NCBI GenBank assembly: GCA_964569575.1
Contig: CAZMTL010000002.1
Location: forward strand, 19,618-83,617
Origin: an uncultured Gammaproteobacteria bacterium
GTDB taxonomy: Bacteria > Patescibacteriota > Patescibacteriia > UBA9934
Direction: 5' to 3'
Length of the DNA: 64,000 nucleotides
Every line of letters begins with the position of its first letter. Positions within the stretch are counted from its first letter, which is position 1. Shown here piece after piece: positions 15,070-61,100 of this stretch. A model generated the notes under the pieces. That model searched no databases. It was not told where the DNA came from and worked only from the letters and a program-made list of their open reading frames with translations. A program made the position numbers and the translations under genes.

Positions 15070-15082
15070 GCACCACGAAGGA

Positions 15083-42766: not shown

Positions 42767-42768
42767 AC

Positions 42769-43473: not shown

Positions 43474-43474
43474 A

Positions 43475-43954: not shown

Positions 43955-44047
43955 GCCTTCAGTATAACACGAAAACAAAAACCAACAGGGATAATAAAGT
44001 GGATAGAAAAAGAGAAATTTAAACCCGACAGCAAACAAAGAAGCGAT

Positions 44048-44097
44048 CAACGCGTAACCACCCCTAGCCCCTCCTTGTGGATCTAAGAAGGAGGGGG
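44048..44097. repeat. Direct repeat copy 1 (caacgcgtaaccacccctagccc + GC hairpin cccctcctt...aaggagggg)
   Basis: Read directly; 9-bp perfect stem cccctcctt/aaggagggg with 11-nt loop. Confidence 0.7.
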
Positions 44098-44565
44098 AAC
44101 GAGCTCGATTTTCGCCGAGAGATTGCTTCGTCGCAAGACTCCTCGCAATGACCAAGTCGAGGCGCATAGATCCTTCACTTCGTTCAGGATGACAAAGTCG
44201 TTTGTTCTGATGTCCTTCCCGCACGAAGAGAGGCGAAGCCGAACGCCAGCGGAGCTCAACGCGCTGTGACAAAGGCACTGTAACAAAATCACGCGAAGGT
44301 CGAGCAGTTCGTCGAACCGGCTGGAGGGGGCCTGACCCCCGTAGGACCGGTGTAGCGAAAAGAACTGCGATCGGTCACTTTCCATAATTTAAAAAATGAA
44401 GCGTGCCGCCGAGCCACGAAAGGCTCTTTCTTTTGCCTACTTCTCTTTGAGCCAGCAAAGAAAAGTAGGTCGGGGTTCGGGGGTGAAACTCCCGATCGCT
44501 GTGACAAAGTCGAGTGTAACAAAATCAAAGCGGCGGAGTCGCGTCAGCCTCGCGGGCACACACGA

Positions 44566-44607
44566 CCAACGCGTAACCACCCCTAGCCCTTCCTTGAAAA
44601 GGAGGGG
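44566..44607. repeat. Direct repeat copy 2 (caacgcgtaaccacccctagccc + hairpin ccttcctt-gaaa-aggagggg)
   Basis: Same 23-nt leader and same hairpin arms as copy 1 but with a GAAA tetraloop; copies about 520 bp apart. A second internal repeat pair (gctgtgacaaag..tgtaacaaaatca..gcg) lies at about 44263-44300 and 44498-44537. Confidence 0.7.
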
Positions 44608-44694
44608 GAAGCGCTTGCGAGAACCGATAGATCCCGGATCAAGTCCCGGATGACGAGAAATGAGAGCTCGATTAACGCAGAAGCGTCACCCTTT

Positions 44695-47019
44695 TTAAAA
44701 CTTCATCTTCTTATTCAACTCCACAATCGCCTGCACCTCGGCAGGAGAAAGCGATTCTTTCCCTTCATTTCTACGATCAGTCGCAATTTCCGCAAACGAA
44801 CGCCCGGCTGTAAGCGATTCACGCGCCATATCTAAATACAACCGATTTACCGGACTCTTGCGCCAACCAGCAACACCAGCAATACGCTGTTCGTAGGCCG
44901 TCGCCTGCAACAACATTAATTTATCCAAAATCTTGCGCCCTGCTTCTTTAGGATCGCTACTCAATCGTCTAAATTCAGAAACCGTCATTGTCCCCAATTC
45001 CTCCACAGGCCCAACCAATTTCTTCACATACGAAACATCCGTCACCTTCCCACCAGATTCTTTATGAACAGGCGCCGCACTTCCAGCGCTCACAAACGCC
45101 TTCGCTTTCTTTGGTCGAGCAGAAACTTCTGCCTCAACAAGAGCCTGCGAACTCACAGAACCTCCCTGCAACTTCAGTTCCTCCTCTTTTGTTCGCGCAG
45201 CACTTACGCTTGCATGCGGAAGCACCGGCTCGACAGATTCTGTCGAACGACTTTTCGTTAACGCAGAAAAACGCTGATCAAGCACCTGGCGCTCTGCTGT
45301 ATCAAAATCCTTCTTCACCTCAGGTACAGCTTTCACTGGCATTTGATGCACACTCGCACGTTTCGCAGCCAACACCACACGCGCAGCATCTTCGTGAGTA
45401 AACGAAAACTTATCAATCAAATACCTCTCCGCTTGATGCAATTCACGCGTTCCTCGCACTACCGAAGCAATCACATCACGAGCCTGCTTTTCTTCAACGG
45501 TATATTTATTAAAGATCTCTGAAGTACTTCGGTACACTTCTTCCACAGTCGTCTCGATAGAAGTAGCCGCAGGAGCAACAGCACGTCTCTGCATCTTGCG
45601 CTTCTCGGCAAGCACCTCCTTCTCTTCCTCTGGTCCAAGCATCATCGAGGCATCTTTCGCTGCAACCACCGAAACGCGTTCGAGCGATTGCGCAGGAGAA
45701 CGCACCGAAAGCGGGCGATCAAACTGTACAGGCGTCTTTTTTGCCTTTATCTCAACCGCAACATCAGGCCCAGACATCATACGCGTCCGTTCCTTGCTTA
45801 ACTTAGCTAAAATATCGCCTGCTTCTTCTTTCGAAAAACCGTGAACATGCTCCAAAATCTGCCGCGTCTTCCCCTTCGAACGCCCTTCGTGCAAAAACCC
45901 GATCGTTAAATCTTTATACGCCACTTCGGACAAACCTTTATTTAGAAAAGTAGCGTGAATCGACTCAAGCGAATCACCCGCATCAACAGTCTGATTTACA
46001 GCACCACGGTCAATAGGAACATCGCGCCAATTCGAAGGTACATCAAGCGCCGCAAATAACGAATCCCAAGACAAATCTTCATCGTCAACCGGAAGCTGAA
46101 CGTCGGGCGCAGGAGCTGTATCACGTGAAGAAAAAAGAGCCATAAACTGATTCCAAACAGCCGCCTTCGATCGCTCGAGTGGTACATCGCTCGCAACATG
46201 CACATCTGTTCGACCAATCTGAACAGACTGATTTGCGCCACTCAACGTAGATTTATACCGATCCGCTTCGCGCTTTGTTAATACCCCAGGCTGTCTGCGC
46301 TGTAACGTCGTCGGACCACCCACTTTAAATACATAAGCAGGATCATCGGCCGCACGCGCAGGCAACCTCGAATCCAAAGACGGTTCAACGACAGGCGCTT
46401 CTGTTTCCAAATCCGAAACATCAGACACATCGAGCGCAAATTTCTTCCCTTCTTTATCGAGCGCATCCAAAAATTTCTCCGAAACAGCCGCATCCAACTC
46501 CATCCCACCAACCGAGACAGGACGACCAAGTGTATGCAAAATAGATTCCTTCGTTCGCGCCTTGGTTAAATACGAAGTAGCCAAGTAAATCAACCGTCGC
46601 AACAAATGTTCCGACAAATTCATCCCCCACTTCTGCACCATGTGACGCACAAACTCGTCGGGAGAAATTTGCTCCTTCTCAACTACCTTTGTTTCATAGT
46701 GCGTCACATCTCCTCCCAAATGCGAAATCTCGGCAACCACGGTTGGTAAATATAACTTCAACGGCAACAACACCATTCCCAAAAAATCCGCCGTCACTTC
46801 CTTCGACTTCGCCTCTTCCAGTCCAAACGCCGCCCGAATCAATTCCTCAACGCCCGTAATTTCCAAATTCCCCCGCACCACCGCATCGCGTAAATCTAAA
46901 AACTCCTCCAACCGATCGGCCGGTAACTGATGCTTTTCAACTAACTGCCTAAGTCGACTAAACACTGAAACGTCGAGCACATAAACAGCAACTGGCTTGT
47001 AAACACGTAAATCCTCCAT
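44695..47019 (-). CDS. Large hypothetical soluble protein (774 aa) inside the T4SS-like cluster
   Basis: Long ORF, no TM, no P-loop found by eye (GRSKGKT is G-x3-GKT, not a Walker A); no assignable motifs. Confidence 0.5.
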   Translation of the reverse strand: MEDLRVYKPVAVYVLDVSVFSRLRQLVEKHQLPADRLEEFLDLRDAVVRGNLEITGVEELIRAAFGLEEAKSKEVTADFLGMVLLPLKLYLPTVVAEISHLGGDVTHYETKVVEKEQISPDEFVRHMVQKWGMNLSEHLLRRLIYLATSYLTKARTKESILHTLGRPVSVGGMELDAAVSEKFLDALDKEGKKFALDVSDVSDLETEAPVVEPSLDSRLPARAADDPAYVFKVGGPTTLQRRQPGVLTKREADRYKSTLSGANQSVQIGRTDVHVASDVPLERSKAAVWNQFMALFSSRDTAPAPDVQLPVDDEDLSWDSLFAALDVPSNWRDVPIDRGAVNQTVDAGDSLESIHATFLNKGLSEVAYKDLTIGFLHEGRSKGKTRQILEHVHGFSKEEAGDILAKLSKERTRMMSGPDVAVEIKAKKTPVQFDRPLSVRSPAQSLERVSVVAAKDASMMLGPEEEKEVLAEKRKMQRRAVAPAATSIETTVEEVYRSTSEIFNKYTVEEKQARDVIASVVRGTRELHQAERYLIDKFSFTHEDAARVVLAAKRASVHQMPVKAVPEVKKDFDTAERQVLDQRFSALTKSRSTESVEPVLPHASVSAARTKEEELKLQGGSVSSQALVEAEVSARPKKAKAFVSAGSAAPVHKESGGKVTDVSYVKKLVGPVEELGTMTVSEFRRLSSDPKEAGRKILDKLMLLQATAYEQRIAGVAGWRKSPVNRLYLDMARESLTAGRSFAEIATDRRNEGKESLSPAEVQAIVELNKKMKF

Positions 47020-47028
47020 GTATCAAGT

Positions 47029-49860
47029 TTAAGGGGTTCCTGTAGAGCCTGGCGTTGGCGTTGACGGCGTCCCAGAAGTTGCCATACCCGGAGCCGATCT
47101 AATATCTCGAGCTACCAAATTAGCATAATCCTTCAAACGTTCACGCTCTTCGCTCTTCCGAATAACAACCGCTCCTTTTCGAGCAGCCACCGCATCATCT
47201 GCTCGAAGTACACGCATAACATTCATAACAGCAGCTTGAATATCTTTTAATTCAGTAGCATTTGCACGCTGTGCGCGCGAATGCAAATCACTAAGTAATT
47301 TTGAAGCATTCTGAGCAATCACCTTTCCGGCATCAGTATGATTACCGCCACCCGTCAGCGAAGGCGTAGACAACATCTTCGCATCAAATTGGGCAACAGC
47401 GGCAGGAGCTGTAGAAATAACTTGTTGCAACAAAATTGGATTAGCAACAGAACCCGTCGCAGAATTAACCTCCACGTCGTTCAAATTACCTGTTGATAAA
47501 TATTTAGCTTGCTTATATTTACTCTGTTCAGCTAGCGAAAGAGTGTTGGAAGCCTGAATAGCATCGATCTTCGCGACAAGAGCATCTCGAACATCAGTCG
47601 CCATATCACTCAAATCCGCTCCACTCACAGCCGCATCAACCGTAGCCTGAACAACACGCCGAGCCTGTTCTTCTGCTTTAGGGTCTGTAGCAGAGCCAGC
47701 AAAATCAAGTGCCGCGATTGGATAAACGCCTGCTTTGACTTCTTCGTCGGTGACCGGCCTCAAAACAGCCTGCTTAGCTCCAATAGCCTCGCTCATTTTT
47801 TGAATATTATTACTTACGGCAGGATTATAATTCTTATTCTGACTAAGCTTAGACAAGTAATTTTGGACGTCTTTATTAACGCCGCCAACGCCAGTATTTA
47901 ATTGATCCAGTGCAGTAGACGCGGTTCGTTTACCACCATTCTCCTGGTCATTAAAGTAACCCATGACTCGCTCATCCAAGGCATCAAGAATCTTTTGATT
48001 AGGCACTGTCTTATATTTCTTTGTCTGAGGATCCATAACGTATTCACCCGTCTTCGGATCAACATAAAATTCCTGCAACGATTCCGCCGAAATCATGCTT
48101 GTCTTGAAACGTTCATCTGAAATAACCTTTTTAACATCTTTTTCATCAAGCAAATGCAAATTTTTAACCTTTGCTTTATACAAATTATCGCTGAAAGACT
48201 TGTCTTCCGCTCCAAAAACCTCTTCCTTCGCATCAGCAACCTTAAGAGCCTGTTTCATTGCAAGATCATAACGCTCTTGTCCTCCAGGTTCACCATACTG
48301 CTTCTGCAATCGTTCCTTCAATCGCTTCTGCTCAAACTTATTTTGCATTAAATTTGAAGCAATAAACATTGAAAACGCTTGGTCACTTTCGTTAAGCTTA
48401 CTAATATCAAAACCAGGCGTCATCATGCGCTCATAATCCATCGCGCGCTGCGTATCGCTTCGAGATTCATATCGCTTCTTCGCCGAATCACGAACAGCAT
48501 TTTCTTGTAACTCAAGTCGATTTTCAGCCATTCCTGCTACATTGGATGTAGCACGCCCAACGGCAGCCAAGGGAGCGAAGGAACTTTGAGCTTGTCGCTC
48601 TCCAAATCTAACAGCATTCTGAGCGTAATCTTTGAAAACTGCAGGAGCGCCTGTACGCCGGTACCCTGCATACGCACCCTTCCCTGCATAATTTGCACCC
48701 GTCGCCAATGTTCGACGCGCAAGCATAGTCGCCATTCCTCCATCCGCCGAAATTGCTTTCGCAGCAAACCCTCCAACCGAAGAAGCTTGCTGACTTGCTG
48801 TCTGAAAGCCAACCATAATCAAAGCAACTCCAACAATCACTCCCATAATCTGATCAAGTGAAAATACTTCAACCAAAAAGTCTGATTCAAAATAATTTCC
48901 ACTTGCGTCTAACTGAGGATCAAACCCAGCGTCTGTGGCAATCGATCCACTAGACGCAACTGCTAGCCCAAGCCAAAGGAAAAAAAGCATGATTGGACCA
49001 AACGCAATCGCGCCAGTCAATCGCTTCCACCAATCTCCGTAGACTCCCTGCAACCCCCCAAGCGTCGCACCCACGCCTTGCGCAAAAAACGCCAACGGTG
49101 AAATAACAATCAAAATCCAAAGTACAACAATGCGATACATCAACGCTGCCGTTAACAAAATAAGCGTAGACGCAACCAGCGCAAGCAGCCAAACCATCGC
49201 AATGGTTGTACCAAGCAATTTAAACGCCTCGATTCCAGAACCAACCGTACCAGCAACTAAACCAGCGTCTTCATTCAATTCGTAAAATCGGCTAAGATTA
49301 AAAAATTCGGCAAAATTCCCTGCCCCTACTTCCGAAATCGCATTAGCAAATGTCACCATGATCACCTGACCAATATCAATCATGAACAAAGTGATCGTCT
49401 TTGAGAAATTCATCGCAATCACAGCGATAAATAATTTCGGCAATTGCTGCTTCCAATCAACTCGACCGGCACCAACCATTGTTTGAACCGCAATCACGAG
49501 CAAAATTACAATCACGAACATGTTCATCAAGTCTCGCACCAACTGCCAACCAACCAACACAACCTGACTACTTCCAAATGCATCATACTGAATCAACGTC
49601 AGCATGATAGAGATAAGCAAAACAATTAATTGCCCAAGCATCCAGGCGATCACGTTAAAGATTCCAGCAATCAAACCCATCAATGTATTTCGAGCAGTAG
49701 CGGTAATCGCTCCAAGTGTATCGCTTTGAGCCAAAACAACATCAGCGCCCCCGAAAACTCCCCCAACAATAACCGCACTCAAAATAAAAAAACTTAAAAA
49801 CAATCTGTGTTTGAACAGAAAAACGCTTGCCTGCGAAAACCATGTACGCAACCGGTTCAT
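47029..49860 (-). CDS. VirB6/TrbL-like polytopic membrane protein with about 550-aa hydrophilic C-terminal extension
   Basis: Start at MNRLRTWF (49860): signal-like segment, then at least 7 hydrophobic helices over about 400 aa, then long soluble region rich in A/K/Q. Confidence 0.45.
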   Translation of the reverse strand: MNRLRTWFSQASVFLFKHRLFLSFFILSAVIVGGVFGGADVVLAQSDTLGAITATARNTLMGLIAGIFNVIAWMLGQLIVLLISIMLTLIQYDAFGSSQVVLVGWQLVRDLMNMFVIVILLVIAVQTMVGAGRVDWKQQLPKLFIAVIAMNFSKTITLFMIDIGQVIMVTFANAISEVGAGNFAEFFNLSRFYELNEDAGLVAGTVGSGIEAFKLLGTTIAMVWLLALVASTLILLTAALMYRIVVLWILIVISPLAFFAQGVGATLGGLQGVYGDWWKRLTGAIAFGPIMLFFLWLGLAVASSGSIATDAGFDPQLDASGNYFESDFLVEVFSLDQIMGVIVGVALIMVGFQTASQQASSVGGFAAKAISADGGMATMLARRTLATGANYAGKGAYAGYRRTGAPAVFKDYAQNAVRFGERQAQSSFAPLAAVGRATSNVAGMAENRLELQENAVRDSAKKRYESRSDTQRAMDYERMMTPGFDISKLNESDQAFSMFIASNLMQNKFEQKRLKERLQKQYGEPGGQERYDLAMKQALKVADAKEEVFGAEDKSFSDNLYKAKVKNLHLLDEKDVKKVISDERFKTSMISAESLQEFYVDPKTGEYVMDPQTKKYKTVPNQKILDALDERVMGYFNDQENGGKRTASTALDQLNTGVGGVNKDVQNYLSKLSQNKNYNPAVSNNIQKMSEAIGAKQAVLRPVTDEEVKAGVYPIAALDFAGSATDPKAEEQARRVVQATVDAAVSGADLSDMATDVRDALVAKIDAIQASNTLSLAEQSKYKQAKYLSTGNLNDVEVNSATGSVANPILLQQVISTAPAAVAQFDAKMLSTPSLTGGGNHTDAGKVIAQNASKLLSDLHSRAQRANATELKDIQAAVMNVMRVLRADDAVAARKGAVVIRKSEERERLKDYANLVARDIRSAPGMATSGTPSTPTPGSTGTP

Positions 49861-49993
49861 AGATAGGTACAGTATAACAAATTTTCGCTCACTCTTGTGA
49901 AAGTTTTGCACATGCAACCGAAAGAAAAATCCCCACTTCTTCCAAACGCCGTTTGCGTGCAGAAAAAGTAGGGATCAGTTGAGCGAACACGAC

Positions 49994-52450
49994 TCAGGGA
50001 GCCGTCAGTACACCGAAGACAGGGACGTGTGACTCGTAGCCGTCGACCGTTCCTTCGTTCGGAACCGTCGAGAACATGACGTCGCCCGGATTGGTACCAC
50101 TCGACACAGGCACGCCATCGAACGGCGCACCAGCATGGCGGTACACACGCGAAGCCCACGAAGGAAGTGCGTCGTCTTCGTGAAACACGAAGCCGAGACG
50201 ATCACACACGTACCCAGGTCGGAACAGGTACGCGTTGAATTCGACCGAGTCTTCCTGCAGTAGAAGCGAGAGGTGCAGTCCCGAGGGCTCGACGCCGTAA
50301 CACTGAGAAATGGCAACCAAGCGGTCACCACCCCCAAACGCCACCACGCCACCCGCCTGCCCCGAACAGCCCGAACCGTACGTGGGATTGGTGCACAAAT
50401 CGGGCGGATAGAGCGTGATCACGCGTCCATCCGTCACCCACTGCGCACCAGGCGAAGCAGAGCCGTAGCGATGTTCGAAATCGCGATACACCTCATGCAC
50501 GCCATTACCATCGATATCAGCGACCACATTCGGCCACTCGCGGTAGTACCGCTGAAGCGTCAGTCGACCGTCTTCGTCCACCGCGCCGTCGCAGTCGTTG
50601 TTCGCCAAGTCCCACAGCTCGACGTGTCCCGGGTGAATTGCGGCATTACTGTCCACGCAGTCCCCGGTACACAAGCCGTATCCGTCGCCATCCACATCCG
50701 CACACCCCGCGTCAGTGTCGGTGTCCGAATCAGAATCCGCATCACTGTCTGCATCCGCGTCAGAATCGGCATCCGCATCACTGTCGGAGTCTGCGTCAGA
50801 ATCCGAATCGGCATCGCTATCCGCATCTGCGTCCGTGTCAGCATCCCCTTCTGCACAACCGAGTTCGGAATGATCCGAAGCTCCGTTGCAATTGAGGTCA
50901 CCATCCACGTAATCACACATGCTCCACCCCAGTCCCGCGAGCGGCGCACCTGGATACGAGTATTCGTACCCGTCGTCGCAATCACCCTGACAGGTGGTGA
51001 AGCCATCGAAGTCCGAGTCCGGACACAAATCGCCCGTATCGGCGTCTGCATCAGAATCGGCATCCGAGTCAGCATCGCTGTCCGCATCTGCGTCGGAATC
51101 TGCGTCGCTATCCGAATCCGCATCCGCGTCGGCATCCGACTCACCCAGCAAGGAAACCCACTCGTCCGCAGGTCCTCCACAGGTGTACACGTCCTGCTCG
51201 GTCAAGCAAAAGTAATCCGTGGCGCAATCGCCCACACGCCCCTGAACCGCCGTGATGGCACCGTCCAGAACGTGCAGAATGTCGCGATCACCAAAACCGA
51301 GCAACAAGTACGTCGACCAGTTCGCGATCGGCATCGCAACGCCGTCCGAAACCAGGTAGACGGTAGGCGTATGTTCTTCGCGCATCACCGTTCCGTCCCG
51401 AAATTCCGCCAAAGCGAAGTCCGAAACGTACTGCGAATACGAAGCGATCTGCGCCGGCACCGCCAGTTCGGACACCGAATTGATCGACATCCCCCAGCTC
51501 GCCAACACCTCACGCCAGTATTCGTGCGGAACACGCAGACGACGCTTGGCACCACCCTCACCGAGCAGCAACCACACCTCGCCTGCGTCGTGCACGGCAT
51601 CCACCGACCAATCCCCATTAACCATGCCACCCGTTTGGTAGCAGGCGAATTCCTGAGGAGAGATCACTTCCACGTTCCGGAAGTCGAATTGACCACCCCA
51701 GAACACCGACTCCGACACGAACGGTCGTAGCACACCTTCCTGCAACCAATACACCGTGCTCGAAGAAGGCTGCTTCACCAACATCCCGTTTGGATGCCAG
51801 CGAGGCGTGCTCAACCGCGAACGGTACAACCGCCCACCCGGCAGTGCACACACCATGTCACTCACAGGGTAACCAGCTTCGATTCCCGTTAGAACATCGG
51901 ACGCATACACGTCCAAGCCCTCGATCGAAGTTCCGTACACCGCATCCTGCCGTGCGTTCCCCTGGTGACGCCCCATGTGGACATGATCACCCGTCGACAT
52001 CCCCGTCGTTCCTTCGTATCCGATCAACGAACCGGCCGCCACCTGCGTACCGTCCGCCACGAACACGTCAGAGAGATGCCCAAGCAACACGTACGTACCG
52101 TCCCCCATCTCGATGTTCACATGAATGCCGAAATTGGTATTCGGCGAATCCTCGTGAACGAACGCCGTGCCCTCGACTGGCGAGTACACCAGATCACGCC
52201 GGTCGTTCGGCGTGTCGAGATCGACGTCGTACCGCGTGCTGTTCCCGCTATGCGAGAAATCACCACCCGGACCCTGAACACACATGCTGGTGTAGCCGTA
52301 GTCGAACGGCATATCCACCATCACCACATCCTGCCCACCACCAACGCCACCGGTCTGATCCCAATCCTCCAAGCCACCCGGCATACGCCAGCAGCCCGAG
52401 TTCAGAATCAGAATCAACAGCAGCATCAGCACCTGAAGATGCTTTCGCAT
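49994..52450 (-). CDS. Secreted (possibly lipoprotein) peptidase M23 (LytM-type) with long Asp/Ser/Ala acidic repeats and Cys-rich CxxDCDD...NDCDG repeats; encoded in GC-rich DNA
   Basis: MRKHLQVLMLLLILILNSGC signal; M23 motifs ...GHLSDVFVADGTQVAAGSLIGYEGTTGMSTGDHVHMG (HxH); runs of DADSDSDADSDADAD; GDCVDSNAAIHPGHVELWDLANNDCDGAVDE repeat. Confidence 0.65.
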   Translation of the reverse strand: MRKHLQVLMLLLILILNSGCWRMPGGLEDWDQTGGVGGGQDVVMVDMPFDYGYTSMCVQGPGGDFSHSGNSTRYDVDLDTPNDRRDLVYSPVEGTAFVHEDSPNTNFGIHVNIEMGDGTYVLLGHLSDVFVADGTQVAAGSLIGYEGTTGMSTGDHVHMGRHQGNARQDAVYGTSIEGLDVYASDVLTGIEAGYPVSDMVCALPGGRLYRSRLSTPRWHPNGMLVKQPSSSTVYWLQEGVLRPFVSESVFWGGQFDFRNVEVISPQEFACYQTGGMVNGDWSVDAVHDAGEVWLLLGEGGAKRRLRVPHEYWREVLASWGMSINSVSELAVPAQIASYSQYVSDFALAEFRDGTVMREEHTPTVYLVSDGVAMPIANWSTYLLLGFGDRDILHVLDGAITAVQGRVGDCATDYFCLTEQDVYTCGGPADEWVSLLGESDADADADSDSDADSDADADSDADSDADSDADADTGDLCPDSDFDGFTTCQGDCDDGYEYSYPGAPLAGLGWSMCDYVDGDLNCNGASDHSELGCAEGDADTDADADSDADSDSDADSDSDADADSDADADSDADSDSDTDTDAGCADVDGDGYGLCTGDCVDSNAAIHPGHVELWDLANNDCDGAVDEDGRLTLQRYYREWPNVVADIDGNGVHEVYRDFEHRYGSASPGAQWVTDGRVITLYPPDLCTNPTYGSGCSGQAGGVVAFGGGDRLVAISQCYGVEPSGLHLSLLLQEDSVEFNAYLFRPGYVCDRLGFVFHEDDALPSWASRVYRHAGAPFDGVPVSSGTNPGDVMFSTVPNEGTVDGYESHVPVFGVLTAP

Positions 52451-52997
52451 GCGTAACCCTTCTGTTCAATTGTAAATGTTCGCGAGACGCTTATTCGTCT
52501 CGAAGCATGAAGGAGTACGCGGTCTAATCAAACTTCGAGCAAAACAAGTAAAGAACCAGCCGAGAGGGTAAAGGGGGCTAAACCCTCTCGCATGGACGGA
52601 CAACGCCTACTCCCATAAACGTCGTCTGTAAATTGTAAAGATCTAGGAAAAGCACGTCGTTTTACTCTTCCAGCAAAGAAACCAAGGAACCCGATCGCGC
52701 CGCTCATTGAATGAAGAACCTGTCACCTCCCCACCCACCTTACGAACGCCTCAGCATTCCGCGTTCAAACCTGAACGTACTTCCATTGCACCTCAGCAAA
52801 CACCCCCAAACAAGCAAAAACCTAAACAATCCTGTCAAACACAAATAACACCTAAACTATTTTCAAAAAGAAACCCTAGCAAAATCCCACAAAAACCCTG
52901 TCGGAACCCCCCGACAAATCGTGGGGATAAAGAAATAATTAAAATTTTAAAACCTTAAAACAAGAGCAACAAGACATTAGGCAAAAATACAAAAATC

Positions 52998-54158
52998 TCA
53001 AGGGTACGTTTTTTGATTCTTCAGCCTTGGATACAAAATCGAATTTTTTATATCATCCCTGCACAAAATCCAAGTAATAAACCTCTCTACCCCCAAACCA
53101 AAACCCGAAGTAATCTGATAACCCTTCTGCCTTCGTAAATTTATGTACCATTCGTAAACTTCGGAATCAATGCCTTGCCTAAAAAGCGATTCATACATTT
53201 CATCCACATTATCCTGACGTTGACCGCATCCAACAATCTCACCACCAAAAGATCCTTCAATAATTGGGGGAAAAATCAAGTCCGCGTTGAAGACCTTACT
53301 CGAACCTTCAGAAACAGGCTTCTGATAAAATGGCACTCTATCTCGATCGTAATGCGTAATCCAAAACGGCGTAACAAATCCCAAGATCTCTGCTATCTTC
53401 AACTCACCCTCGGAAGTTAAATCCCGACCAAACGGAGTAGTACGTACAAAATCCCCATAGCCAGACTGAACTAAAGTTGAAATTGCTCGATCAAACGTAA
53501 TTACTGGAAATTTTTGTGATTGCAAAACCCTGTTCGCGGCAATCAATGATCTCTCGGAGGCTAAACTTATTTGCTGCAAAATATTCGGCAATGAAATCAA
53601 CGTATACGACAATATCTTGACATAATTCTCCACTAGAGGAATCAAGTCACTGATGCCGCCCCGTATCTCCGCCTCACAATGAAAAAATTGATTCAAATGT
53701 CGTTTATCTGGATCTTCTCCGCGCATCGAAGGCATGTAACAATAAACTTTTTCGATACCATTCAACAAAATTGGCTCAAAACCAAACTGAGAAGAATCCA
53801 CAAGATTTGAAGCATACTTTCCGAATTGAATTGGAATTGCTTCAGAATCAGAACCAGGTCCCATTGGCGAAGAAACGCTGGGAGTCAACATGAACAGATC
53901 AATATTTTTCGCTCCACATTCTACGGAGAAATAATAATCCGAAACAATTTTGACATGATGTCGCAGATAAATGAGAGCCTGAAAATAACCACTCGTCGTT
54001 AGATCAAGATAATGAGTTTCTGAATGATACTGTGGTAAAACAAATTTTTTCTGATCAATATTTTTAAAGATCAAATCATCCTTCACTATTTCCTGCATTA
54101 AATATGACGGCAACATAAAATCAATGTTCAAGTATTCTAATTCTTGCTTTATTTTCAT
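52998..54158 (-). CDS. Class IIb aaRS (AsnRS/AspRS)-like catalytic-core protein lacking an anticodon-binding OB domain (AsnA-type ligase or aspartyl-adenylate-forming enzyme)
   Basis: Motif 1-like NIDLFMLTPSVSSPMGPGSDSEAIPIQFGKYASNLVDSSQFGFE; motif 2-like MRGEDPDKRHLNQFFHCEAEIRGG; motif 3 SGFGLGVERFITW; N-terminal 60 aa not OB-like; 386 aa. Confidence 0.6.
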   Translation of the reverse strand: MKIKQELEYLNIDFMLPSYLMQEIVKDDLIFKNIDQKKFVLPQYHSETHYLDLTTSGYFQALIYLRHHVKIVSDYYFSVECGAKNIDLFMLTPSVSSPMGPGSDSEAIPIQFGKYASNLVDSSQFGFEPILLNGIEKVYCYMPSMRGEDPDKRHLNQFFHCEAEIRGGISDLIPLVENYVKILSYTLISLPNILQQISLASERSLIAANRVLQSQKFPVITFDRAISTLVQSGYGDFVRTTPFGRDLTSEGELKIAEILGFVTPFWITHYDRDRVPFYQKPVSEGSSKVFNADLIFPPIIEGSFGGEIVGCGQRQDNVDEMYESLFRQGIDSEVYEWYINLRRQKGYQITSGFGLGVERFITWILCRDDIKNSILYPRLKNQKTYP

Positions 54159-55140
54159 GCGCCATTATCTCTGCACTACCTCCAACAGGCAAAGTTGCAA
54201 GAGAAGATGTATGTCCAAAATCAACATTTGCAATAATAGGCAGATCGCTCAACTCACGCTTAGTGCCCACAATCTGATTCAGCAAATCCCTTGTCATCTT
54301 GCTTGATTTTTGAAAACGACCGATCAATATTCCTTTAACTCCCGCGAAATCAGGCTGTTGAATAAACGACTGCAAATGTCTATCGAATAGTTGGGGGTTA
54401 ATTTCAGCATCCTCTTCTAAGATCAAAATCGAATCATCAAGTCCTGGCCAAAATTCAGTTCCCTGCAAAGCGCTCAAACTTCGAACATGACCACCGATAA
54501 CTCTACCGACCGCATGGCCAGGATTAACAATCCAGTACCCTTCGTTTAAAATAAAATGTCTTTTTTCTTGATCCAAATACCAAGCATCGTCACTCCACTC
54601 CCGAGAAGATACAAGATCATAGGCGGATTCCTGCATACAACATTCCACGAAACTATCTATAGAGTAATCAAAACCATGCTTCATAGCCCAACTAGAAAAA
54701 TGAGGTCCTAAATAAGTAATCATTCCCGTTTTTGCAGTAATCGCATTAATTAACGCTGTTATATCCGAAAATCCGCAAATAATCTTTGGATTATTCTGAA
54801 TTAACTCATAATCAATATACTGAAGCAACTGGTTCGAATTATACCCTCCAATAACAGTCAAAATTGCATCTACTCGACGATCTCGAAAAGCATCGTGTAA
54901 ATCGGACACCCGGGCGCTAACCGAAGAAGAATGAAACGACTCCACTTCATTAATACGCTCGCCAAAAGACAAGGTAAATCCAAAACGGCGCAATCGATCT
55001 AACGCATCCTCAAAAATCACATCAGATAATAAGCTCAAATTTCGCGCAGGCGCTATCACGCGGATATGAGAACCTTTAACAATTCTTTTTGGCTTAATGA
55101 TATTTTTAATCTCAATAGTATCTGGCATATAAATAGACAT
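54121..55140 (-). CDS. S66-family LD-carboxypeptidase (MccF/LdcA-like serine peptidase)
   Basis: 339 aa; nucleophile motif ICGFSDITALINA; overall LdcA/MccF two-domain pattern. MccF versus LdcA cannot be distinguished by eye. Confidence 0.6.
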   Translation of the reverse strand: MSIYMPDTIEIKNIIKPKRIVKGSHIRVIAPARNLSLLSDVIFEDALDRLRRFGFTLSFGERINEVESFHSSSVSARVSDLHDAFRDRRVDAILTVIGGYNSNQLLQYIDYELIQNNPKIICGFSDITALINAITAKTGMITYLGPHFSSWAMKHGFDYSIDSFVECCMQESAYDLVSSREWSDDAWYLDQEKRHFILNEGYWIVNPGHAVGRVIGGHVRSLSALQGTEFWPGLDDSILILEEDAEINPQLFDRHLQSFIQQPDFAGVKGILIGRFQKSSKMTRDLLNQIVGTKRELSDLPIIANVDFGHTSSLATLPVGGSAEIMAHENKARIRILEH

Positions 55141-55142
55141 CT

Positions 55143-56288
55143 TTAACTTAACGCATCTACAATCTTCTTTTCATCTTCTGTTAAATTTCGCTTCATAAAT
55201 AATTCATTTTCAAATGCTTGAATATATTCCCGAATAGTTTCAGCGGACAATGATTGTTCTGAATGCTGAAATTGAACATTCTCGAAACTAGAAATGAGTT
55301 CCTGAACACGATCAAGTTCAAAACCAGCTCGTCCCCTAAAATAGCTTAACGATCTAACATACTGCTTTAAAATTCTATTTCGATTACCTTGCCCAAACGG
55401 CCGCAAACCCTCTCTATACAAAACACAACTAGTAATAATTGAATCTTCAAATTTTCGTCTTATAACTTGATCCTCGATAACTTCAAGCCCAATAACGGGT
55501 ATGCAGTCCTGAACATGATCTAAGGCATGCAATTGTTTTAGAATTACACTAGACCCCAAAGCAACTTCAATACCCAGCGAACCTTGATCATCTTCCAATA
55601 AAATAACATTTCCAATATCACTAAAGCCCTCACCAACAGGGTCACGCAACGCGATATTAAAATTCCTTCCGATCACACCCGGCACACCAATTTGATGCCG
55701 ATAATACTCAGGTTTCCTACTATCCATCTCTAACCTATCATCACAATACACCCGGGCCGCAGCAATTAAATCAGAATCCTCCGAAAAGGCTCTTACCAAA
55801 ATATTATTCGGCTGAATATGCAGCGTTCTTTCTAAAAAAGAAAACACATCACGACACCCTTCCTCTAATCCAGTTGGCGTAGAAAGAACGCCCATACTCG
55901 AAAAATACGAACCCCACTGCGGAGAAAAAGAATCATCAAACAACTTATCTACATTTCTCGTTCTTAAACAATCCTGCTGCATGAAAAGTCCTGGCGGAGC
56001 AATTGACTGCGAATTTAGATACGGTTTAAAAACACTAATATGAGAACCGATAAATCTAACCGTCGGGTCAATACCTGAAGTAATTTTTACCGAAGGTACT
56101 TGTTGATAACCAAGTAAAGCATAGTGCTCAGAAAAACTATTCAATAAATCATCAACTACCTCCTTTGCTGTTTCTGGAGAAAAACGCTCTTTGCCGTAAA
56201 TATTTTCTTCAGGAGTCTCGACGGATTTTTTCTCAAACTCTAAATGTGGCTTAAATTTCTCACTCATACTAATTAAACTTACAAACAA
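55143..56288 (-). CDS. Stand-alone alanyl-tRNA-synthetase-like catalytic domain paralogue (no tRNA-recognition/editing/C-Ala domains)
   Basis: N-terminus aligns to the AlaRS aminoacylation domain: SEHYALLGYQQVPSVKITSGIDPTVRFIGSHISVFKPY vs AlaRS F..F...GH..V.SS.LVP..DPTLLFTNAGMNQFKP; QQDCLRTRNVD vs SQRCVRAGGKHND; WGSYFSSMG vs FFEMLGNFS. Region corresponding to GMGLERI is divergent (LGSSVIL). Alternative start MSEKF at 56267. Confidence 0.5.
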   Translation of the reverse strand: MFVSLISMSEKFKPHLEFEKKSVETPEENIYGKERFSPETAKEVVDDLLNSFSEHYALLGYQQVPSVKITSGIDPTVRFIGSHISVFKPYLNSQSIAPPGLFMQQDCLRTRNVDKLFDDSFSPQWGSYFSSMGVLSTPTGLEEGCRDVFSFLERTLHIQPNNILVRAFSEDSDLIAAARVYCDDRLEMDSRKPEYYRHQIGVPGVIGRNFNIALRDPVGEGFSDIGNVILLEDDQGSLGIEVALGSSVILKQLHALDHVQDCIPVIGLEVIEDQVIRRKFEDSIITSCVLYREGLRPFGQGNRNRILKQYVRSLSYFRGRAGFELDRVQELISSFENVQFQHSEQSLSAETIREYIQAFENELFMKRNLTEDEKKIVDALS

Positions 56289-57042
56289 TTAAAATCAAGA
56301 ATTTATTCCGCCCAAAAATCTTCGCAACAAAATTACCGATCGAATTCAAGATAAATTTTGGCGTTTCCATAATCAACGGATTACCAAAGCGCTCAACCGA
56401 TACAACATCAATTTGTTTACCCGCCCCGCTAGAGACTTTATGGAAAATCCGAACAATTTCTTCTATTTTATAAAACCTCTCTGTATCTAGCTTGTAACCC
56501 GGGAGAAATTTAATCTTTTTCAAAAACCAGGCTTTTACAATAGGACCAGAGTAAAAATTCGGCATACCCACAGCAACAGCTCCACCGGAACGACAAACTC
56601 GAAACATCTCCTCAAGAATTAATTCGATATTCTCCAAGCTATAATGCTCAATGACACCAATATTCCAAACAAAATCAAATTCACCCGATTTGAAAGGCAT
56701 CTTGTATAAATCGCCTTCAACAAACTCAATACCATCGGATTCAAATTTTTTAGATAAATGAGAGGCATACTGCAACGCAACCGAAGAAATATCTAAAAGA
56801 GTCTTAGAAAACGAACGATCTAACAAAATTGTCGCCTTGCCAGAGCCACTACCCGCCTCAAGAATACGAGTCAGCTGATTCTTTTGTAAAAACTGGTCAA
56901 CAAAAACCTTCAACTCCTCGTAGTAACACTGCCACCAATATGAAGAAAATCGCTCCATTCGATCAGCTTTTAATTCCGACTCAAAAATCTTGCTCCAAAA
57001 GTCATTTTCGTGCTCAACAATCTTTTGTAAATCTTCTGTCAT
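56269..57042 (-). CDS. Class I SAM-dependent methyltransferase
   Basis: Motif I ILEAGSGSGKAT, acidic post-I LLDIS, motif II FDFVWNIGVIEH; 257 aa. Confidence 0.7.
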   Translation of the reverse strand: MTEDLQKIVEHENDFWSKIFESELKADRMERFSSYWWQCYYEELKVFVDQFLQKNQLTRILEAGSGSGKATILLDRSFSKTLLDISSVALQYASHLSKKFESDGIEFVEGDLYKMPFKSGEFDFVWNIGVIEHYSLENIELILEEMFRVCRSGGAVAVGMPNFYSGPIVKAWFLKKIKFLPGYKLDTERFYKIEEIVRIFHKVSSGAGKQIDVVSVERFGNPLIMETPKFILNSIGNFVAKIFGRNKFLILIVCKFN

Positions 57043-57174
57043 ACAACTCGATAGAAATCATCAAAATCTATAAATATTGTACGCTACATACGCAAAAAAC
57101 AAAATTTCACAGAAAAACATCATGAAATAGCTCAATAAATATAAACAAAATAACCCAAACCTTATCCCCAAGCA

Positions 57175-57203
57175 TTGACAAAACCGCTAAAATAAGCTAT
57201 GTT
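57175..57203 (+). promoter_or_regulatory. Putative sigma70 promoter (TTGACA-N17-TATGTT) for the lipoprotein gene, followed by a GNRA-tetraloop leader hairpin (57220-57237)
   Basis: Read directly; hairpin gacactc-gcaa-gagtgtc then gcttcttgctctttggg; AGGAG SD 8 nt before ATG at 57307. Confidence 0.4.
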
Positions 57204-57306
57204 TGAAGCAAAGGAGAGAGACACTCGCAAGAGTGTCGCTTCTTGCTCTTTGGGCAATGTCGCCCGTACACCACCGCGCCGCAGGGCGCCCAGATAGGAG
57301 AACCCC

Positions 57307-57978
57307 ATGCGCAACAGCATGACCTTCATCGCGTTCGCCCTCTCCCTCGTCGCCTGCAAGGCCGGCAAGGACACGGGCATCGACACCTCCAACCCGGAAG
57401 AGGTCGCGTTCATCGAGTACAACGTCACGATCGGCAACCAGCCGGTCAACATGTTCGTCTTCAATGCCGACGGACAGTCGGTCGCCAGCACCAACCGCGA
57501 AGTCCAGGTCGAACCGGGACCCTACCGGCTCCTGGTCGGCGACGGCAGCGCGTGGCACCCGAACGGCGAGTGGCCGCTGTGCCTGTACACCGACGGCAAC
57601 TACTGGGGCTGTCCGGAGACCGAGACGCTCGTCCTCGAGGACGGCGACGTGTTCCAGAGCTCCTGCGACATGTCCCTGGTCTTCTGGGGAACGTACACGC
57701 TCACCAGCCAAAGCTGCAACGAGTCTGCGTGCAACGAACCTCGCACTGAGACCAATGTCTACGTCGAGGTGCAGCCGAACCTCACGATTCTGCTCGAAAG
57801 CGGAGACGGAGACAACATCGCGAACGAGTTCAACGGAACGCTCGAAGTACAAGGAGCAAGCCTGTCGATCAACACCGATGCAACCCTTGAAGTCAACGAG
57901 TTCAACGTCGACTACATCGACTTCATCCGGTACCAGCCTAGCGGAAGCTGGAGCAACATCACCATGTCGCGCCAGTAA
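57307..57978 (+). CDS. Hypothetical lipoprotein (GC-rich gene)
   Basis: MRNSMTFIAFALSLVACK: canonical lipobox L-V-A-C; Cys-containing Asn/Thr/Glu-rich mature part; antisense ORFs 57187-58026 and 57162-57494 are shadow frames. Confidence 0.6.
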   Translation: MRNSMTFIAFALSLVACKAGKDTGIDTSNPEEVAFIEYNVTIGNQPVNMFVFNADGQSVASTNREVQVEPGPYRLLVGDGSAWHPNGEWPLCLYTDGNYWGCPETETLVLEDGDVFQSSCDMSLVFWGTYTLTSQSCNESACNEPRTETNVYVEVQPNLTILLESGDGDNIANEFNGTLEVQGASLSINTDATLEVNEFNVDYIDFIRYQPSGSWSNITMSRQ

Positions 57979-58123: not shown

Positions 58124-61100
58124 TTATCGTGGCGAAACAAGAATCACTCCATCAAACTCTATCCAAGGGTCAATGCCAGGCTCTAAAACATCCGGAAAAG
58201 CTTGATAATCACACTGTACGCGTTCCGTTGGATCAGTACCTAGCCCGGCTGTACTGTTCGTATCCACCGTCCCCTCAAAACATCCATCCTCTCCATTACA
58301 CGTTCCTGCACACCATCCCCAGTTATCACGAACGTGAACTTTTGGCTTAAATGCACATTGTGCAGTATCGCCTTCACCTACACGACAAGGCGTGTTTGAG
58401 TAGTCAGCGTTACACACCGACGTGCCAGGAAGAGTTACAGCGTTACAAGTATACGTATGCGTATACGATAGATAATTCTCACTACATGATTCGCTTGTTA
58501 ATCCCCATTCGGAGTTAAGTGAACACAGCGTTGTGGATTCGTCACCTTGCACCAATCCACGGTGATTTCGGAAGAAGTTGTCTTCTGAAGGTGACCCACT
58601 TTCATCACCATCACCCCAATCCACAATCACACGTCGAATCGGCAACTGATCAGGCAACGCGAAGGCAAAGAAGTTTGCTGTTACTCGCAAGAATCCGCCC
58701 TGTCCGATAACCGTTCCAGAATTTTGACCATTTACGGTAATTGTATCTTCCTGACCTTCTTCACACAAATCCCCGAAACATCGATCCGTATTCAATCCTC
58801 GAACGCGCGGAGGACCACCTTGAGCCGCACGCACATCCCACAGCGCTCGATCAGCCTCTGCCAATTCACCTCCAAGAGAATCCTCGACAGTGTACTCAGG
58901 AGCATACTCAGTAGATTGCCAGTTCGCTGCCGGCGTAATCAAATCTTGAGTCCAAGTAAACCAATCCTGAGTGTCCGGAAGGTTCAAACTAGCAAACATC
59001 TGCGTCGCACGGGCATAGAAGTTGTTTGCTGGATTTGCCTCGACAGTCCAGAAATCAACCAGGTCATCGAAAGCTACATCTTCGTAATCATAACCGAAAT
59101 CCATCAACGATGAGATTTCAGGATCTGAAGGAACATGGCCGTCTACTCCATAAAACAGCGCACCACTCTCCATTTCTTCGTATGGGTACACACAGTTTAC
59201 TGTCGTAGGGGCCGCAAGATCATTCAACCAAGCACTTTCTTCAGAAGAACTTTGGAAACTTGTTGAAGCAGTACTAGAAGTTGTATCAAAATTAATATTC
59301 GAATCGTACACAGGTGCATTTGGCAATGGAGTTCCTGGAGCAAACTCATTGTCTGCCTTATTCGCGATACACGCACCGATTCTTAACGGAGCTTTTTCAA
59401 GTAAAGTATCCGAAGCATTAATAGCGGAAGGCGAATACTTCGCGGCACCTGCAATATTATCTGCTCCAAAAGAATAATTCATTCGAGGATTATTCGATGC
59501 AATTACGCCGCCTTGGAAAAGCTTATTTGTAAACGCATATCCCTCCCCAGAAGACGAAGACACTTGCAATAAATCTTTACAGGCAGGATAAACATCAAGA
59601 TTGATATAAGCATGTCGATAACGTCGGTTTGCTGTTATTGCAACATCTTCGTTTGTACGGAAATCATAAATGCTATCCAACTGATCCGCCGCAACACCTG
59701 GAAGCACACAATCCTGATAAGCATTCAACACAGCACTAAACGCTTGAATCTGCTGCGCACCTCCATCATTGCGATCATTCAAAGGCTGACTAGTAGCTGC
59801 CCATGTATAAACCTCGTTGCCAAAGTTACTAGTACGAACACCACCATTAATAGCAGATTCGGCACCTTGTAGACCGTCTATCGCGGCAGCCACAGCATCA
59901 TCTGAGCTTGGCGCAAGACATTCACGCTGCTCCAGATTTTCATTCGCCTCGGATGCATGGAAAGAATTTTTCGGAATACAGGCGTATGGACAATCGTTAT
60001 CAGAACCATCTCCGGCACACATACCTGCGGCACCACCAAAATTCGCATTTGGTGCTGGCTGACCCACCACGGCGAAATATCCTTCAGGACAAGCTGCATT
60101 CTGCCAACAACCATCAGCATTAGAAGTAAGTCTTTGATAACTATTATTGACGTTGACTCCTTGAACTCCTGGAGCTTCTGCACAGGCAACGCCTGGCTGA
60201 TTCGCATTATTCGACAACTGAATATCACTCGTCCTCAAATTCGCGAACAGGCGAACGTCTGAACACACGAATGTGTCTTCGAAGAATCCGGCTGTTTTGT
60301 ATTTTGCGTACAAATCAGTTGTTCCCTGCAATTGATCTACTGGGTACCAAGTAATACATGCTCCAACATCTGTTGTTCCATCAATATTAATTGACGTATC
60401 ACGCTCCAAACAGAATCCTTCCATTCCATAGAGGGTATCGAGTCGGTTAATTGGCTGACAAACGGCTCCAGAATCAACATCTCCACAGTCAGTGTCTTCG
60501 GTACAAATCGAACCAGCAAGCGCTCCACCGCTACACACTCCAGAATACGGAGTTGTTGAATCGTATGGATCTGTATCCAAATCTAAGTACGCAAATTGAT
60601 TACTCGAATCCGAAATCTTCACATACGAACACATACAGTCTTCACCCGGCGCGCAGAAATTCGCATTTTCGTAGCCGGAAACTGTCGAGAACGGCGAAAC
60701 AGAAGATTGATTTAGACCACCGCCAACAATTGGATCACCAACTTCCGACGACGACTTAGGCACGCCATCTTTTCCAATCCATTGTGTAACAAGCGAAGAA
60801 TCAAACGGACTTGTCGCTTCTGGATATGCGCGACAAATATGAACTTCACCGCTATCTTCCGCGATTTGCTCACCATCTACTCCCACAACACAACTATCGC
60901 GGTAGCAAGTTCCTTCCGTAGTCGCAACCGACTGGAAACACACGCCCGCTCCACACGATCCATTAATACACGTTCCCGCCAAACTACAATCTCCCACATC
61001 GTTATAACAAGTTCCGGCAACAAACACCTGACCAGCCGAACAATCTGCTTGGCTGTCGGCACCCGTTGATCCAACTGAATAATATTCACCAATAATACAA

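Follow-up and report, generated by a model that had tools for sequence, protein, structure and literature searches.

In the microcin C system of Escherichia coli (MccA/B/C/D/E/F), MccB adenylates a C-terminal Asn, and MccD and MccE put an aminopropyl group on the microcin C phosphoramidate. Three enzyme classes, S66, HIT and GNAT, are known to detoxify processed microcin C (PMC8323819). In the ascamycin cluster of Streptomyces sp. 80H647, AcmF, a truncated AlaRS-like enzyme without the residues for ATP use and alanine activation, moves Ala, and also Gly or Ser, from aminoacyl-tRNA to a nucleoside, giving an aminoacyl-adenylate mimic (PMC12945691). Here we describe a four-gene operon with likenesses to both systems, located in a 64,000-nucleotide stretch (the window) of contig CAZMTL010000002.1 from an uncultured bacterium of the Patescibacteria. 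It encodes a class I S-adenosylmethionine (SAM)-dependent methyltransferase (MT), an AlaRS-like protein (AlaRSl), an S66 serine peptidase and an AsnRS-type class II catalytic core (AsnRSl). We propose that paralogues of aminoacyl-tRNA synthetases (aaRSs) here provide a route to an aminoacyl-nucleotide antimetabolite, accompanied by hydrolytic self-immunity, and we judge this reading of the sequences to have somewhat better than an even chance of being right.

Like the microcin C system, the operon contains an S66 enzyme from the MccF side of the family and a class I SAM-dependent enzyme, and we propose that its AsnRS-type pocket carries out chemistry on Asn or Asp and ATP, a task that belongs to MccB in microcin C. 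Unlike that system, the window lacks a precursor peptide, a ThiF-type MccB and an MFS exporter, its MT is not an MccD homologue, and adenylation would fall to tRNA-synthetase paralogues, a logic not described for microcin-C-like compounds. An earlier reading of the DNA, the original prediction, had likewise seen no convincing precursor-peptide open reading frame (ORF) nearby. We examined the window and 40+ related loci, and neither a ThiF domain nor a short Asn-terminated ORF adjoins the cluster in any of them.

The ascamycin cluster resembles ours in having a hydrolase that reverses aminoacylation (AcmE there and, we propose, the S66 peptidase here) and an adjoining full-length aaRS (AcmD there, GlyRS at some loci here). 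It differs in that our cluster has no sulfamate-forming or halogenating genes, and in that the proposed hydrolase has an S66 rather than an alpha/beta hydrolase fold. We found no description in the literature of the cluster, of either aaRS-like family or of phosmidosine biosynthesis. The system is best filed under a known kind, aminoacyl-nucleotide toxins with MccF-type immunity, with the biosynthetic logic of tRNA-synthetase paralogues as its new element.

Results

AlaRSl retains an AcmF-like constellation of residues

AlaRSl is hardly recognizable to domain models: its only Pfam match, tRNA-synt_2c, is below threshold (E 0.003), and its Pfam and NCBIfam scores lie far under the cutoffs. An AlphaFold model built with 30 homologues (predicted local distance difference test score, pLDDT, 88.4; predicted template modelling score, pTM, 0.87) was searched with Foldseek, and the top PDB matches were all AlaRS catalytic fragments (1riq, 9jdn, 3hxu and 4xem; E 1e-14 to 1e-12, template modelling score 0.65-0.69, 13-19% identity). 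The modelled fold thus identifies the protein as AlaRS-like. It consists of the aminoacylation domain and the first helices of the tRNA-recognition domain, ends ~330 residues into the AlaRS frame and is without editing and C-Ala domains; AcmF is similarly truncated, to an aminoacylation domain and part of the tRNA-recognition domain.

Active-site residues were mapped by profile alignment to E. coli AlaRS (hhalign) and by a MAFFT alignment of the superfamily from candidate phyla radiation (CPR) bacteria to Serratia, and the two agree. The motif-2 Arg of E. coli AlaRS (R69) corresponds to an invariant R109 and the E209/N212 pair to an invariant D224/N227, while D235 is replaced by an invariant Glu (E241) and G237 by another small residue, Ala (A243). 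The motif-3 Arg is absent throughout the family, with V or T in its place. An aromatic pair, W125-x3-F129, is invariant across the superfamily. The original prediction had made its case depend on an intact adenylate-forming site in AlaRSl; the motif-2 Arg is kept, whereas the loss of the motif-3 Arg and the change of D235 to Glu do not fit an ordinary AlaRS site.

The same pattern is seen in AcmF, which binds sulfamoyl-adenosine via R93, W100/F104 and E216/Q219 and in which the essential E232 replaces Asp235 (PMC12945691). These AcmF residues, taken from the published description (R93/W100/F104/E216/Q219/E232), correspond to AlaRSl R109/W125/F129/D224/N227/E241, all invariant; the motif-2 Arg, the stacking pair and the acidic-x2-N/Q pair are thus kept in both, together with the Glu at the Asp235 position. 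The distance from the N/Q residue to this Glu is 14 in AlaRSl and 13 in AcmF, as against 23 in E. coli AlaRS. Judged by its residues, AlaRSl is more likely to be an AcmF-type transferase than an adenylate-former. A precedent invoked earlier also needs amendment: AcmD and AcmF had been presented as stand-alone alanylating enzymes, but the transferase is AcmF alone, which depends on tRNA, AcmD being an ordinary AlaRS (PMC12945691). The AlaRSl family has, in addition, invariant motifs of its own (W-x-S-x-F, YYxHxxG and GRNxNxA), a signature indicative of a distinct active site.

AsnRSl appears to be an intact adenylate-forming core

AsnRSl matches Pfam tRNA-synt_2 (PF00152, E 2e-24), and hhalign aligns it with E. 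coli AsnRS residues 131-461 (probability 99.4%); because only this segment is covered, AsnRSl is the catalytic domain, and the OB-fold anticodon domain is absent. In the PDB it comes closest to P. horikoshii AsnRS (E 3e-30, 108 bits), while the archaeal-type asparagine synthetase A, AS-AR, reaches 34 bits (E 1.5e-7). Its AlphaFold model had pLDDT <50 over residues 84-163 and was not used for a fold search.

Across 27 family members (60-72% identity), R146 (the motif-2 Arg), E148, H154, E162/E164, the Mg2+/amino-acid residues E307 and R314, and the motif-3 sequence GFGLGxER (R359) are invariant. The segment 'SSQFGFE' is of the AsnRS type (AsnRS 'SAQLYLE'), and the AspRS Lys is not present. AsnRSl scores far under all NCBIfam equivalog cutoffs, including those of the AsnA and EpmA models; the best of the AsnA models gives 125 bits vs a cutoff of 389 (E 1e-36), and asnS models score higher, TIGR00457 giving 152 vs 343. 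Databases annotate the family as 'amino acid--tRNA ligase-related protein'. By these sequence criteria AsnRSl has an intact adenylate-forming site; it is not the AsnRS of translation, nor is it a housekeeping AsnA.

Other class II cores have lost the anticodon domain, among them AS-AR (PDB 3p8t, 1nnh), EpmA/PoxA, HisZ and the amino acid:carrier-protein ligases, and use their adenylate for something other than translational tRNA charging, as we propose for AsnRSl. Unlike AS-AR, AsnRSl is much nearer genuine AsnRS and has 372 rather than ~294 residues, and unlike these paralogues it is always linked to an S66 gene, with no carrier protein or EF-P context.

The S66 peptidase belongs with Lmo1638/BA_5613 and MccF

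The third protein has the S66 two-domain fold (Pfam Peptidase_S66, E 2e-34; S66C, E 2e-26) and is ~57% identical over its full length to PDB 4h1h and 4e5s (Lmo1638/BA_5613; E 1e-103). Among PDB entries it matches Bacillus anthracis MccF with E 1e-40 and E. coli MccF with 5e-32, but LdcA with just 4e-17, and the LdcA matches cover one domain at a time. The NCBIfam LdcA model (E 9e-28) gives 97 bits against the 378 required for the equivalog NF008424. The nucleophile S125 (in GFSDITAL; the residue mutated in PDB 4inj), the His (FGHT), the Glu (LEED) and the R254 equivalent are present in 34/34 cluster copies, and an MccF-type inter-domain loop aligns with EcMccF and BaMccF where LdcA has a gap.

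In a neighbour-joining tree the cluster S66 proteins form one clade, sister to Lmo1638/BA_5613 and nearer verified MccF than LdcA; a second, distinct S66 paralogue occurs in the same CPR loci. The peptidase, which the original prediction had described as MccF/LdcA-type, thus groups by sequence with Lmo1638/BA_5613 and MccF, not with LdcA. It shares with Lmo1638/BA_5613 (PDB 4h1h, 4e5s, 5fd8, 5usd) the catalytic triad, the loop motif WSDDxWYxDQE and the R or small residues at the same pocket positions. Whereas those proteins are encoded by stand-alone chromosomal genes of Firmicutes, the window S66 lies in an operon with aaRS paralogues and has relatives that are fused to its partners.

The fourth enzyme, MT, is recognized by Pfam Methyltransf_11/25 (E 3e-17), and our search for a solved relative of an informative kind found none.

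The four genes are a conserved, mobile operon

We scanned 185,579 species genomes for AlaRSl and found it at 42 species-level loci, in which its partners were then identified with our own ORF calling and phmmer. An S66 orthologue is present at 36 of these (<=200 bp from AlaRSl at 31), an AsnRSl orthologue at 26, with a divergent tRNA-synt_2 core at 3 further loci, and an MT orthologue, at the equivalent position, at 24; all four genes occur together at 18. Chance cannot plausibly account for a gene set that is found again in dozens of genomes from distant relatives, and the earlier treatment of the four genes as one cluster is borne out by their relatives.

Fusions join the same partners. They link AlaRSl to S66 (L026), MT to S66 (L045), AlaRSl to MT (P0313), AlaRSl to HD (L045/P0387), REC to AlaRSl (P0335) and GNAT to AlaRSl (P0306); given that such fusions exist, the fused proteins act in one pathway.

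The AlaRSl family is rare, diverse and sharply bounded. At least 185 close homologues, nearly all from Patescibacteria, are all annotated 'hypothetical', and a profile search of 1.84 billion representatives returned 619 relatives, 272 of them at E<=1e-30 (clusters at 50% identity), without retrieving true AlaRS. The hosts are mostly Patescibacteria, but also include a Calothrix parasitica plasmid, Gracilibacteria, metagenome-assembled genomes (MAGs) of Firmicutes, Alphaproteobacteria and one Methanosarcinales MAG. The expectation that such a system would be unusual in small-genome bacteria is therefore reversed, Patescibacteria being its main home.

Gene order varies around a constant core: HD–MT–AlaRSl–S66–AsnRSl in Zambryskibacteria, and HAD–MT–SDR–beta-helix–AlaRSl–S66–AsnRSl–radical SAM in Moranbacteria. 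On a Bradyrhizobium elkanii symbiosis plasmid the set is S66 (54% identity)–AsnRSl (56%)–HAD–MT (40%) without AlaRSl, alphaproteobacterial MAGs pair AlaRSl with S66, and a Nocardia plasmid combines a different anticodon-less class II core with S66, radical SAM and SDR genes. AsnRSl is hence a patchy, island- and plasmid-borne accessory gene, not the lineage-wide AsnA that had been raised as its simplest identity.

Several copies adjoin insertion sequence (IS) elements or integrases, and the identical clusters of L001-L003 have differing downstream neighbours. The GC content of the cluster is below that of its flanks in 24/27 loci; the flanking GC-rich genes had been regarded as foreign-looking, yet by composition the foreign element is the AT-rich cluster itself. 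The ~5 kb contigs that carry the cluster have no terminal overlaps, i.e. no circularity was seen. IMG/VR scans detected no viral relatives of AlaRSl or AsnRSl, and we rejected a phage module on this ground; a PHROGs search gave nothing informative. L007, L015, L016 and L017 have assorted tRNA genes (Ala/Ser, Asp, Glu, Trp) at a distance of 0.7-2 kb on the upstream side of the cluster, a position that fits the insertion of an island near tRNA genes better than it fits a dedicated tRNA.

A sister cluster carries microcin C-type decoration genes

A tie to microcin C is seen at L059, where a GNAT–AlaRSl fusion (36% identity to the window protein, E 1e-66) and a tRNA-synt_2 core (43% identity over 97% of the window AsnRSl, E 2e-97) lie beside an S66 gene and a PurD-like ATP-grasp gene. 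The locus also encodes a protein homologous to MccD over its full length (26% over 256 aa, E 3e-31) and another that is homologous to the N-terminal decarboxylase of MccE (E 4e-16). Counterparts of MccD, of the MccE decarboxylase, of a GNAT and of an S66 enzyme are thus found next to orthologues of the window's aaRS-like pair. Neither MccA nor ThiF/MccB is present at L059, and similarity of the P0306 GNAT to the MccE C-terminal GNAT was not detectable.

Partner genes handle nucleotides or resist aminoacyl-nucleotides

Each recurrent partner of the cluster is a nucleotide enzyme or a known type of resistance to aminoacyl-nucleotides. An HD (YedJ-like) or HAD phosphohydrolase precedes MT in 16 loci. 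In an alphaproteobacterial/archaeal variant the order is radical SAM – P-loop kinase-like – HIT-family – AlaRSl – S66. Among Gammaproteobacteria, a clade of Serratia, Pseudomonas viridiflava, Erwinia and Pectobacterium carries the order MT – two dCTP-deaminase-family genes – AlaRSl – metallophosphoesterase – ATP-grasp – MFS on an integrase/IS66-flanked island; the ATP-grasp L-amino-acid ligases number one or two, the MFS protein is an exporter, and S66 is absent. An exporter is absent from the clusters that contain S66, and an MFS gene is present in the Serratia/Pseudomonas type, where S66 is absent; this alternation of S66 with an exporter or another hydrolase fits a protective role for S66. 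Three of these hosts, Serratia plymuthica, S. nevei and Pseudomonas viridiflava (L047/L048/L055), are cultured, plant-associated bacteria and offer a tractable entry point to the AlaRSl family.

Further variants include dCTP-deaminase-like genes with S66 adjoining phage terminase and portal genes (L057), and a radical SAM–DCD–AlaRSl–DCD–alpha/beta hydrolase–NUDIX set (L056), in which the alpha/beta hydrolase parallels AcmE of the ascamycin cluster. Around this set, at 13838-16052, are genes for Nmad3, Nmad2 and NucS and a BsuBI/PstI restriction enzyme, a defence- or DNA-modification-island context. Candidate viperins among the partner radical SAM proteins were rejected, the pVip matches (PADLOC) being weak and the NCBIfam viperin cutoff being missed by a wide margin.

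In four loci (L011, L022, L025, L044) the cluster is directly adjoined by a genuine GlyRS gene (606 bits vs a cutoff of 312). At L011 two copies that are 67% identical to each other flank the cluster (1872-3272 and 8870-10273), the first being 77-78% identical to the cluster-adjacent GlyRS of L022 and L025. By analogy, the adjacent GlyRS could be a resistant copy of the target or an AcmD-like supplier of Gly-tRNA.

A histidine-kinase-like protein (536-585 aa, HATPase_c, with HisKA too in L004) is encoded near the cluster in 11 loci at variable positions (e.g. L001 2041-3702), often accompanied by an unannotated 275-aa protein. These neighbours and the REC–AlaRSl fusion suggest two-component regulation. 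Just upstream of the cluster in the Zambryskibacteria L001/L002/L003, at 3761-6111, are a PheRS-alpha-like protein (tRNA-synt_2d + FDX-ACB, 385 aa), an MvdD-type ATP-grasp (329 aa) and a 53-aa ORF, which may be a graspetide/microviridin-like set for a ribosomally synthesized, post-translationally modified peptide with another aaRS paralogue.

Discussion

Proposed mechanism

We propose that the product is a stable aminoacyl-adenylate mimic, akin to microcin C, ascamycin or phosmidosine, and that an aminoacyl-tRNA synthetase is the enzyme it poisons. AsnRSl, whose site is intact, would convert Asn (or Asp) and ATP into an Asx–nucleotide species. AlaRSl would act in an AcmF-like manner, holding the nucleotide with its motif-2 Arg and W/F stacking pair and the Ala or Gly with its invariant Glu; judging from the residue pattern and precedent, it would pass the aminoacyl group, probably from aminoacyl-tRNA, to an amine of the nucleotide intermediate. 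MT is expected to decorate the conjugate, as its slot is that of the MccD homologue in L059. Finally, S66 would cut the aminoacyl–nucleotide amide in the producer cytoplasm, conferring self-immunity, a role suggested by its family and by its alternation with other resistance types. A toxin of this kind, with MccF-type immunity, is what had been predicted, and it is the best-supported reading after testing, with the role of AlaRSl corrected; the HIT, GNAT and MccD-/MccE-like partners, the fusions and the adjacent GlyRS in some loci add support that the prediction did not have.

Several observations weigh against this proposal. Support for every member consists of homology and gene context. The window holds no enzyme evidently able to form a P–N or S–N bond, and the chemistry that would yield a stable mimic is hypothetical. 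Also missing from the window are HD, HAD, HIT, kinase and radical SAM genes, a GlyRS or other extra aaRS gene, and an exporter. A dedicated tRNA gene was not found beside the cluster. In AlaRSl a basic residue (K251/R252) is conserved one helical turn past the missing motif-3 Arg, and on this evidence the protein might still use ATP; it also keeps Asn (N227) where AcmF has Gln (N219Q), a comparison made with AcmF's published residues rather than its full sequence. In S66, the loop carries a conserved W[YF]xDQE motif whose Trp aligns 2 residues off the adenine-stacking W186 of EcMccF, and the EcMccF contacts to the Asp side chain, N220 and K247, are replaced by R (28/34) and by I/T/V in the cluster clade, so its acyl specificity probably differs from that of MccF. 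For the nearest S66 relatives, Lmo1638/BA_5613, we found no literature report of a natural substrate or role. MT was considered as an MccD homologue and rejected, as the two share generic fold similarity alone.

It is possible, if on balance unlikely, that the aaRS paralogues replace the ribosomal-peptide/MccB route to a microcin-C-type warhead in particular. AsnRSl would then act on free Asn through adenylation, succinimide formation and a second adenylation to give a P–N-linked isoasparaginyl-adenylate, to which AlaRSl would add tRNA-borne Ala or Gly as a 'Trojan-horse' handle; MT would cap the phosphoramidate as in phosmidosine, and S66 would shield the producer. Ultra-small Patescibacteria might, in this way, aim aaRS-inhibiting antimetabolites at hosts or competitors.

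Alternative explanations

The alternative that survives best, though we consider it improbable, is a nucleotide-based conflict or defence module, in which an intracellular aminoacylated nucleotide would be an anti-phage or abortive-infection effector or signal and S66 the off-switch. Relatives of AlaRSl do occur in defence-island-like contexts (the restriction enzyme, Nmad2/3 and NucS of L056, the phage genes of L057, the integrases and IS66 of L055), with dCTP-deaminase-like, NUDIX and MoaA/viperin-like radical SAM partners; the REC fusion and the recurrent histidine kinase suggest that the activity is regulated, and the CPR clusters have no exporter. However, PADLOC matched none of the three core proteins, the radical SAM proteins fall far short of viperins, and viral contigs contain neither aaRS-like family. 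The MFS exporter and ATP-grasp ligases of Serratia and Pseudomonas are typical of a secreted peptide-nucleoside, and the MccD-/MccE-type decoration genes of L059 point to an exported toxin resembling microcin C.

Another possibility, which we hold to be distinctly improbable, is non-toxic biosynthesis: the aaRS-like proteins would supply aminoacyl-adenylates from which S66 passes the acyl group via an acyl-enzyme, or processes it, toward, for example, a tRNA-independent small peptide, a modified nucleotide cofactor or a cell-envelope precursor. The position of S66 as a hub is in keeping with this idea: it pairs with either aaRS-like protein alone (Bradyrhizobium, the alphaproteobacterial MAGs, and Nocardia with its other core), is fused to AlaRSl or MT, and has an acyl pocket that differs from MccF's. 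Yet we know of no S66 enzyme that acts as a transferase, MccE offers a precedent for the fusion of immunity and biosynthetic domains, S66 alternates with exporters or other hydrolases as a protective enzyme would, and the patchy, island-borne distribution speaks against a core metabolite.

It seems very improbable that the cluster is a resistance-only island, whose aaRS cores would be decoys for exogenous aminoacyl-adenylate mimics while S66, HIT or GNAT destroys the toxin and MT inactivates it. Catalytic cores of aaRSs bind aminoacyl-adenylate mimics very tightly, all three hydrolase or transferase types are known to resist processed microcin C, the S66 subfamily also stands alone in Firmicutes, and the window lacks both an exporter and an evident P–N-forming enzyme. 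Binding decoys, however, need no strict conservation of Mg2+/ATP catalytic residues, the YYxHxxG and GRNxNxA motifs of AlaRSl suggest a new catalytic activity, and a biosynthetic role is suggested by partners of the radical SAM, SDR, ATP-grasp ligase, MccD-like, decarboxylase and kinase types.

The plainest explanation, a housekeeping archaeal-type AsnA and a murein LD-carboxypeptidase LdcA among unrelated neighbours, agrees with the generic family matches and with the cell-wall hydrolase (M23) gene that adjoins the operon, but is effectively excluded by the sub-equivalog scores, by the nearness of AsnRSl to AsnRS and of S66 to MccF with its loop, by the co-conservation and fusion of four genes found in so few species genomes, on plasmids and AT-rich islands, and by the M23 gene not being conserved with the cluster.

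Significance

If the proposed aaRS-paralogue pathway is correct, it would define two uncharacterised families, one AlaRS-derived (at least 272 clusters at 50% identity) and one an AsnRS-derived core, and a route to aminoacyl-nucleotide antimetabolites that involves neither the ribosome nor a non-ribosomal peptide synthetase. It would also give a physiological setting to the solved but orphan MccF-like peptidases of the Lmo1638/BA_5613 type. CPR bacteria are usually thought to be without secondary metabolism; these genome-reduced organisms would instead widely carry a small toxin/immunity operon relevant to an epibiotic lifestyle. In practical terms, aaRS inhibitors could be made chemo-enzymatically with these enzymes, and the hydrolases would be candidate resistance determinants for that drug class.

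Operon boundaries and genomic surroundings

The ORF list and the sequence confirmed the four co-directional minus-strand genes at 52998-57042 and, together with Pfam, AlphaFold/Foldseek and hhalign, the domain types first assigned to them (Table 1). The genes had been described as overlapping or abutting, of which only the second stands. The ORF finder placed AlaRSl at 55143-56288 and AsnRSl at 52998-54158; homologue comparison and sequence reading moved the AlaRSl start to an ATG 1 nt past the MT stop, and the TTG at 56288 is probably not used. The AsnRSl start was moved to an ATG 4 nt past the S66 stop, which gives the length typical of its family. With these starts the genes abut with 1-4 nt spacers, and the 38-nt overlap disappears. 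A single transcription unit is the best explanation for the four genes.

Table 1. Features of the operon and its borders in the window.
Feature	Position	Strand	Basis
MT, class I SAM-dependent methyltransferase, operon gene 1, 257 aa	56269..57042	-	Pfam Methyltransf_11/25/31
AlaRSl, truncated AlaRS-like protein, 374 aa from ATG at 56267	55143..56267	-	AlphaFold + Foldseek + hhalign/MAFFT
S66 serine peptidase, Lmo1638/BA_5613 'MccF-like' subfamily, 339 aa	54121..55140	-	Pfam + PDB matches
AsnRSl, AsnRS-type class II catalytic core without anticodon-binding domain, 372 aa from ATG at 54116	52998..54116	-	PF00152, PDB, hhalign
Terminator-like hairpin + T-run, ~80 nt 3' of last operon gene	52897..52918	-	consensus scan, pattern match only
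AT-rich intergenic region, 264 bp, between operon and divergent lipoprotein gene; presumed promoter region	57043..57306	.	direct sequence reading

The consensus scan found terminator-like sites in the region at no more than the shuffled expectation, and promoter-like hexamers in the intergenic region are not enriched vs shuffles; its promoter role is presumed from the gene arrangement alone.

The 3' side of the operon borders on a set of minus-strand genes for type IV secretion of the CPR type (40769-52450). The member that adjoins the operon encodes an M23 peptidase lipoprotein with long acidic (D-A-D-S)n repeats (49994-52450, 60% GC); the set also includes genes for a 962-aa polytopic membrane protein (47029-49917), a 774-aa protein without a Pfam match, a PrgI-family protein (43475-44278) and a VirB4/TraG-like ATPase (40769-42766). 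At other loci the cluster is not accompanied by these neighbours, the M23 gene included. Upstream of the operon are a small lipoprotein gene (57307-57978, plus strand, 54% GC) and a gene for a Cys-rich giant protein of 1946 aa (58124-63964, minus strand), neither with a Pfam match. The GC content is 38% in the operon, 46% in the remaining window and 54-60% in the two immediate flanks, and the adjacent blocks of 60%, 38% and 54% GC suggest a hotspot of recombination or insertion.

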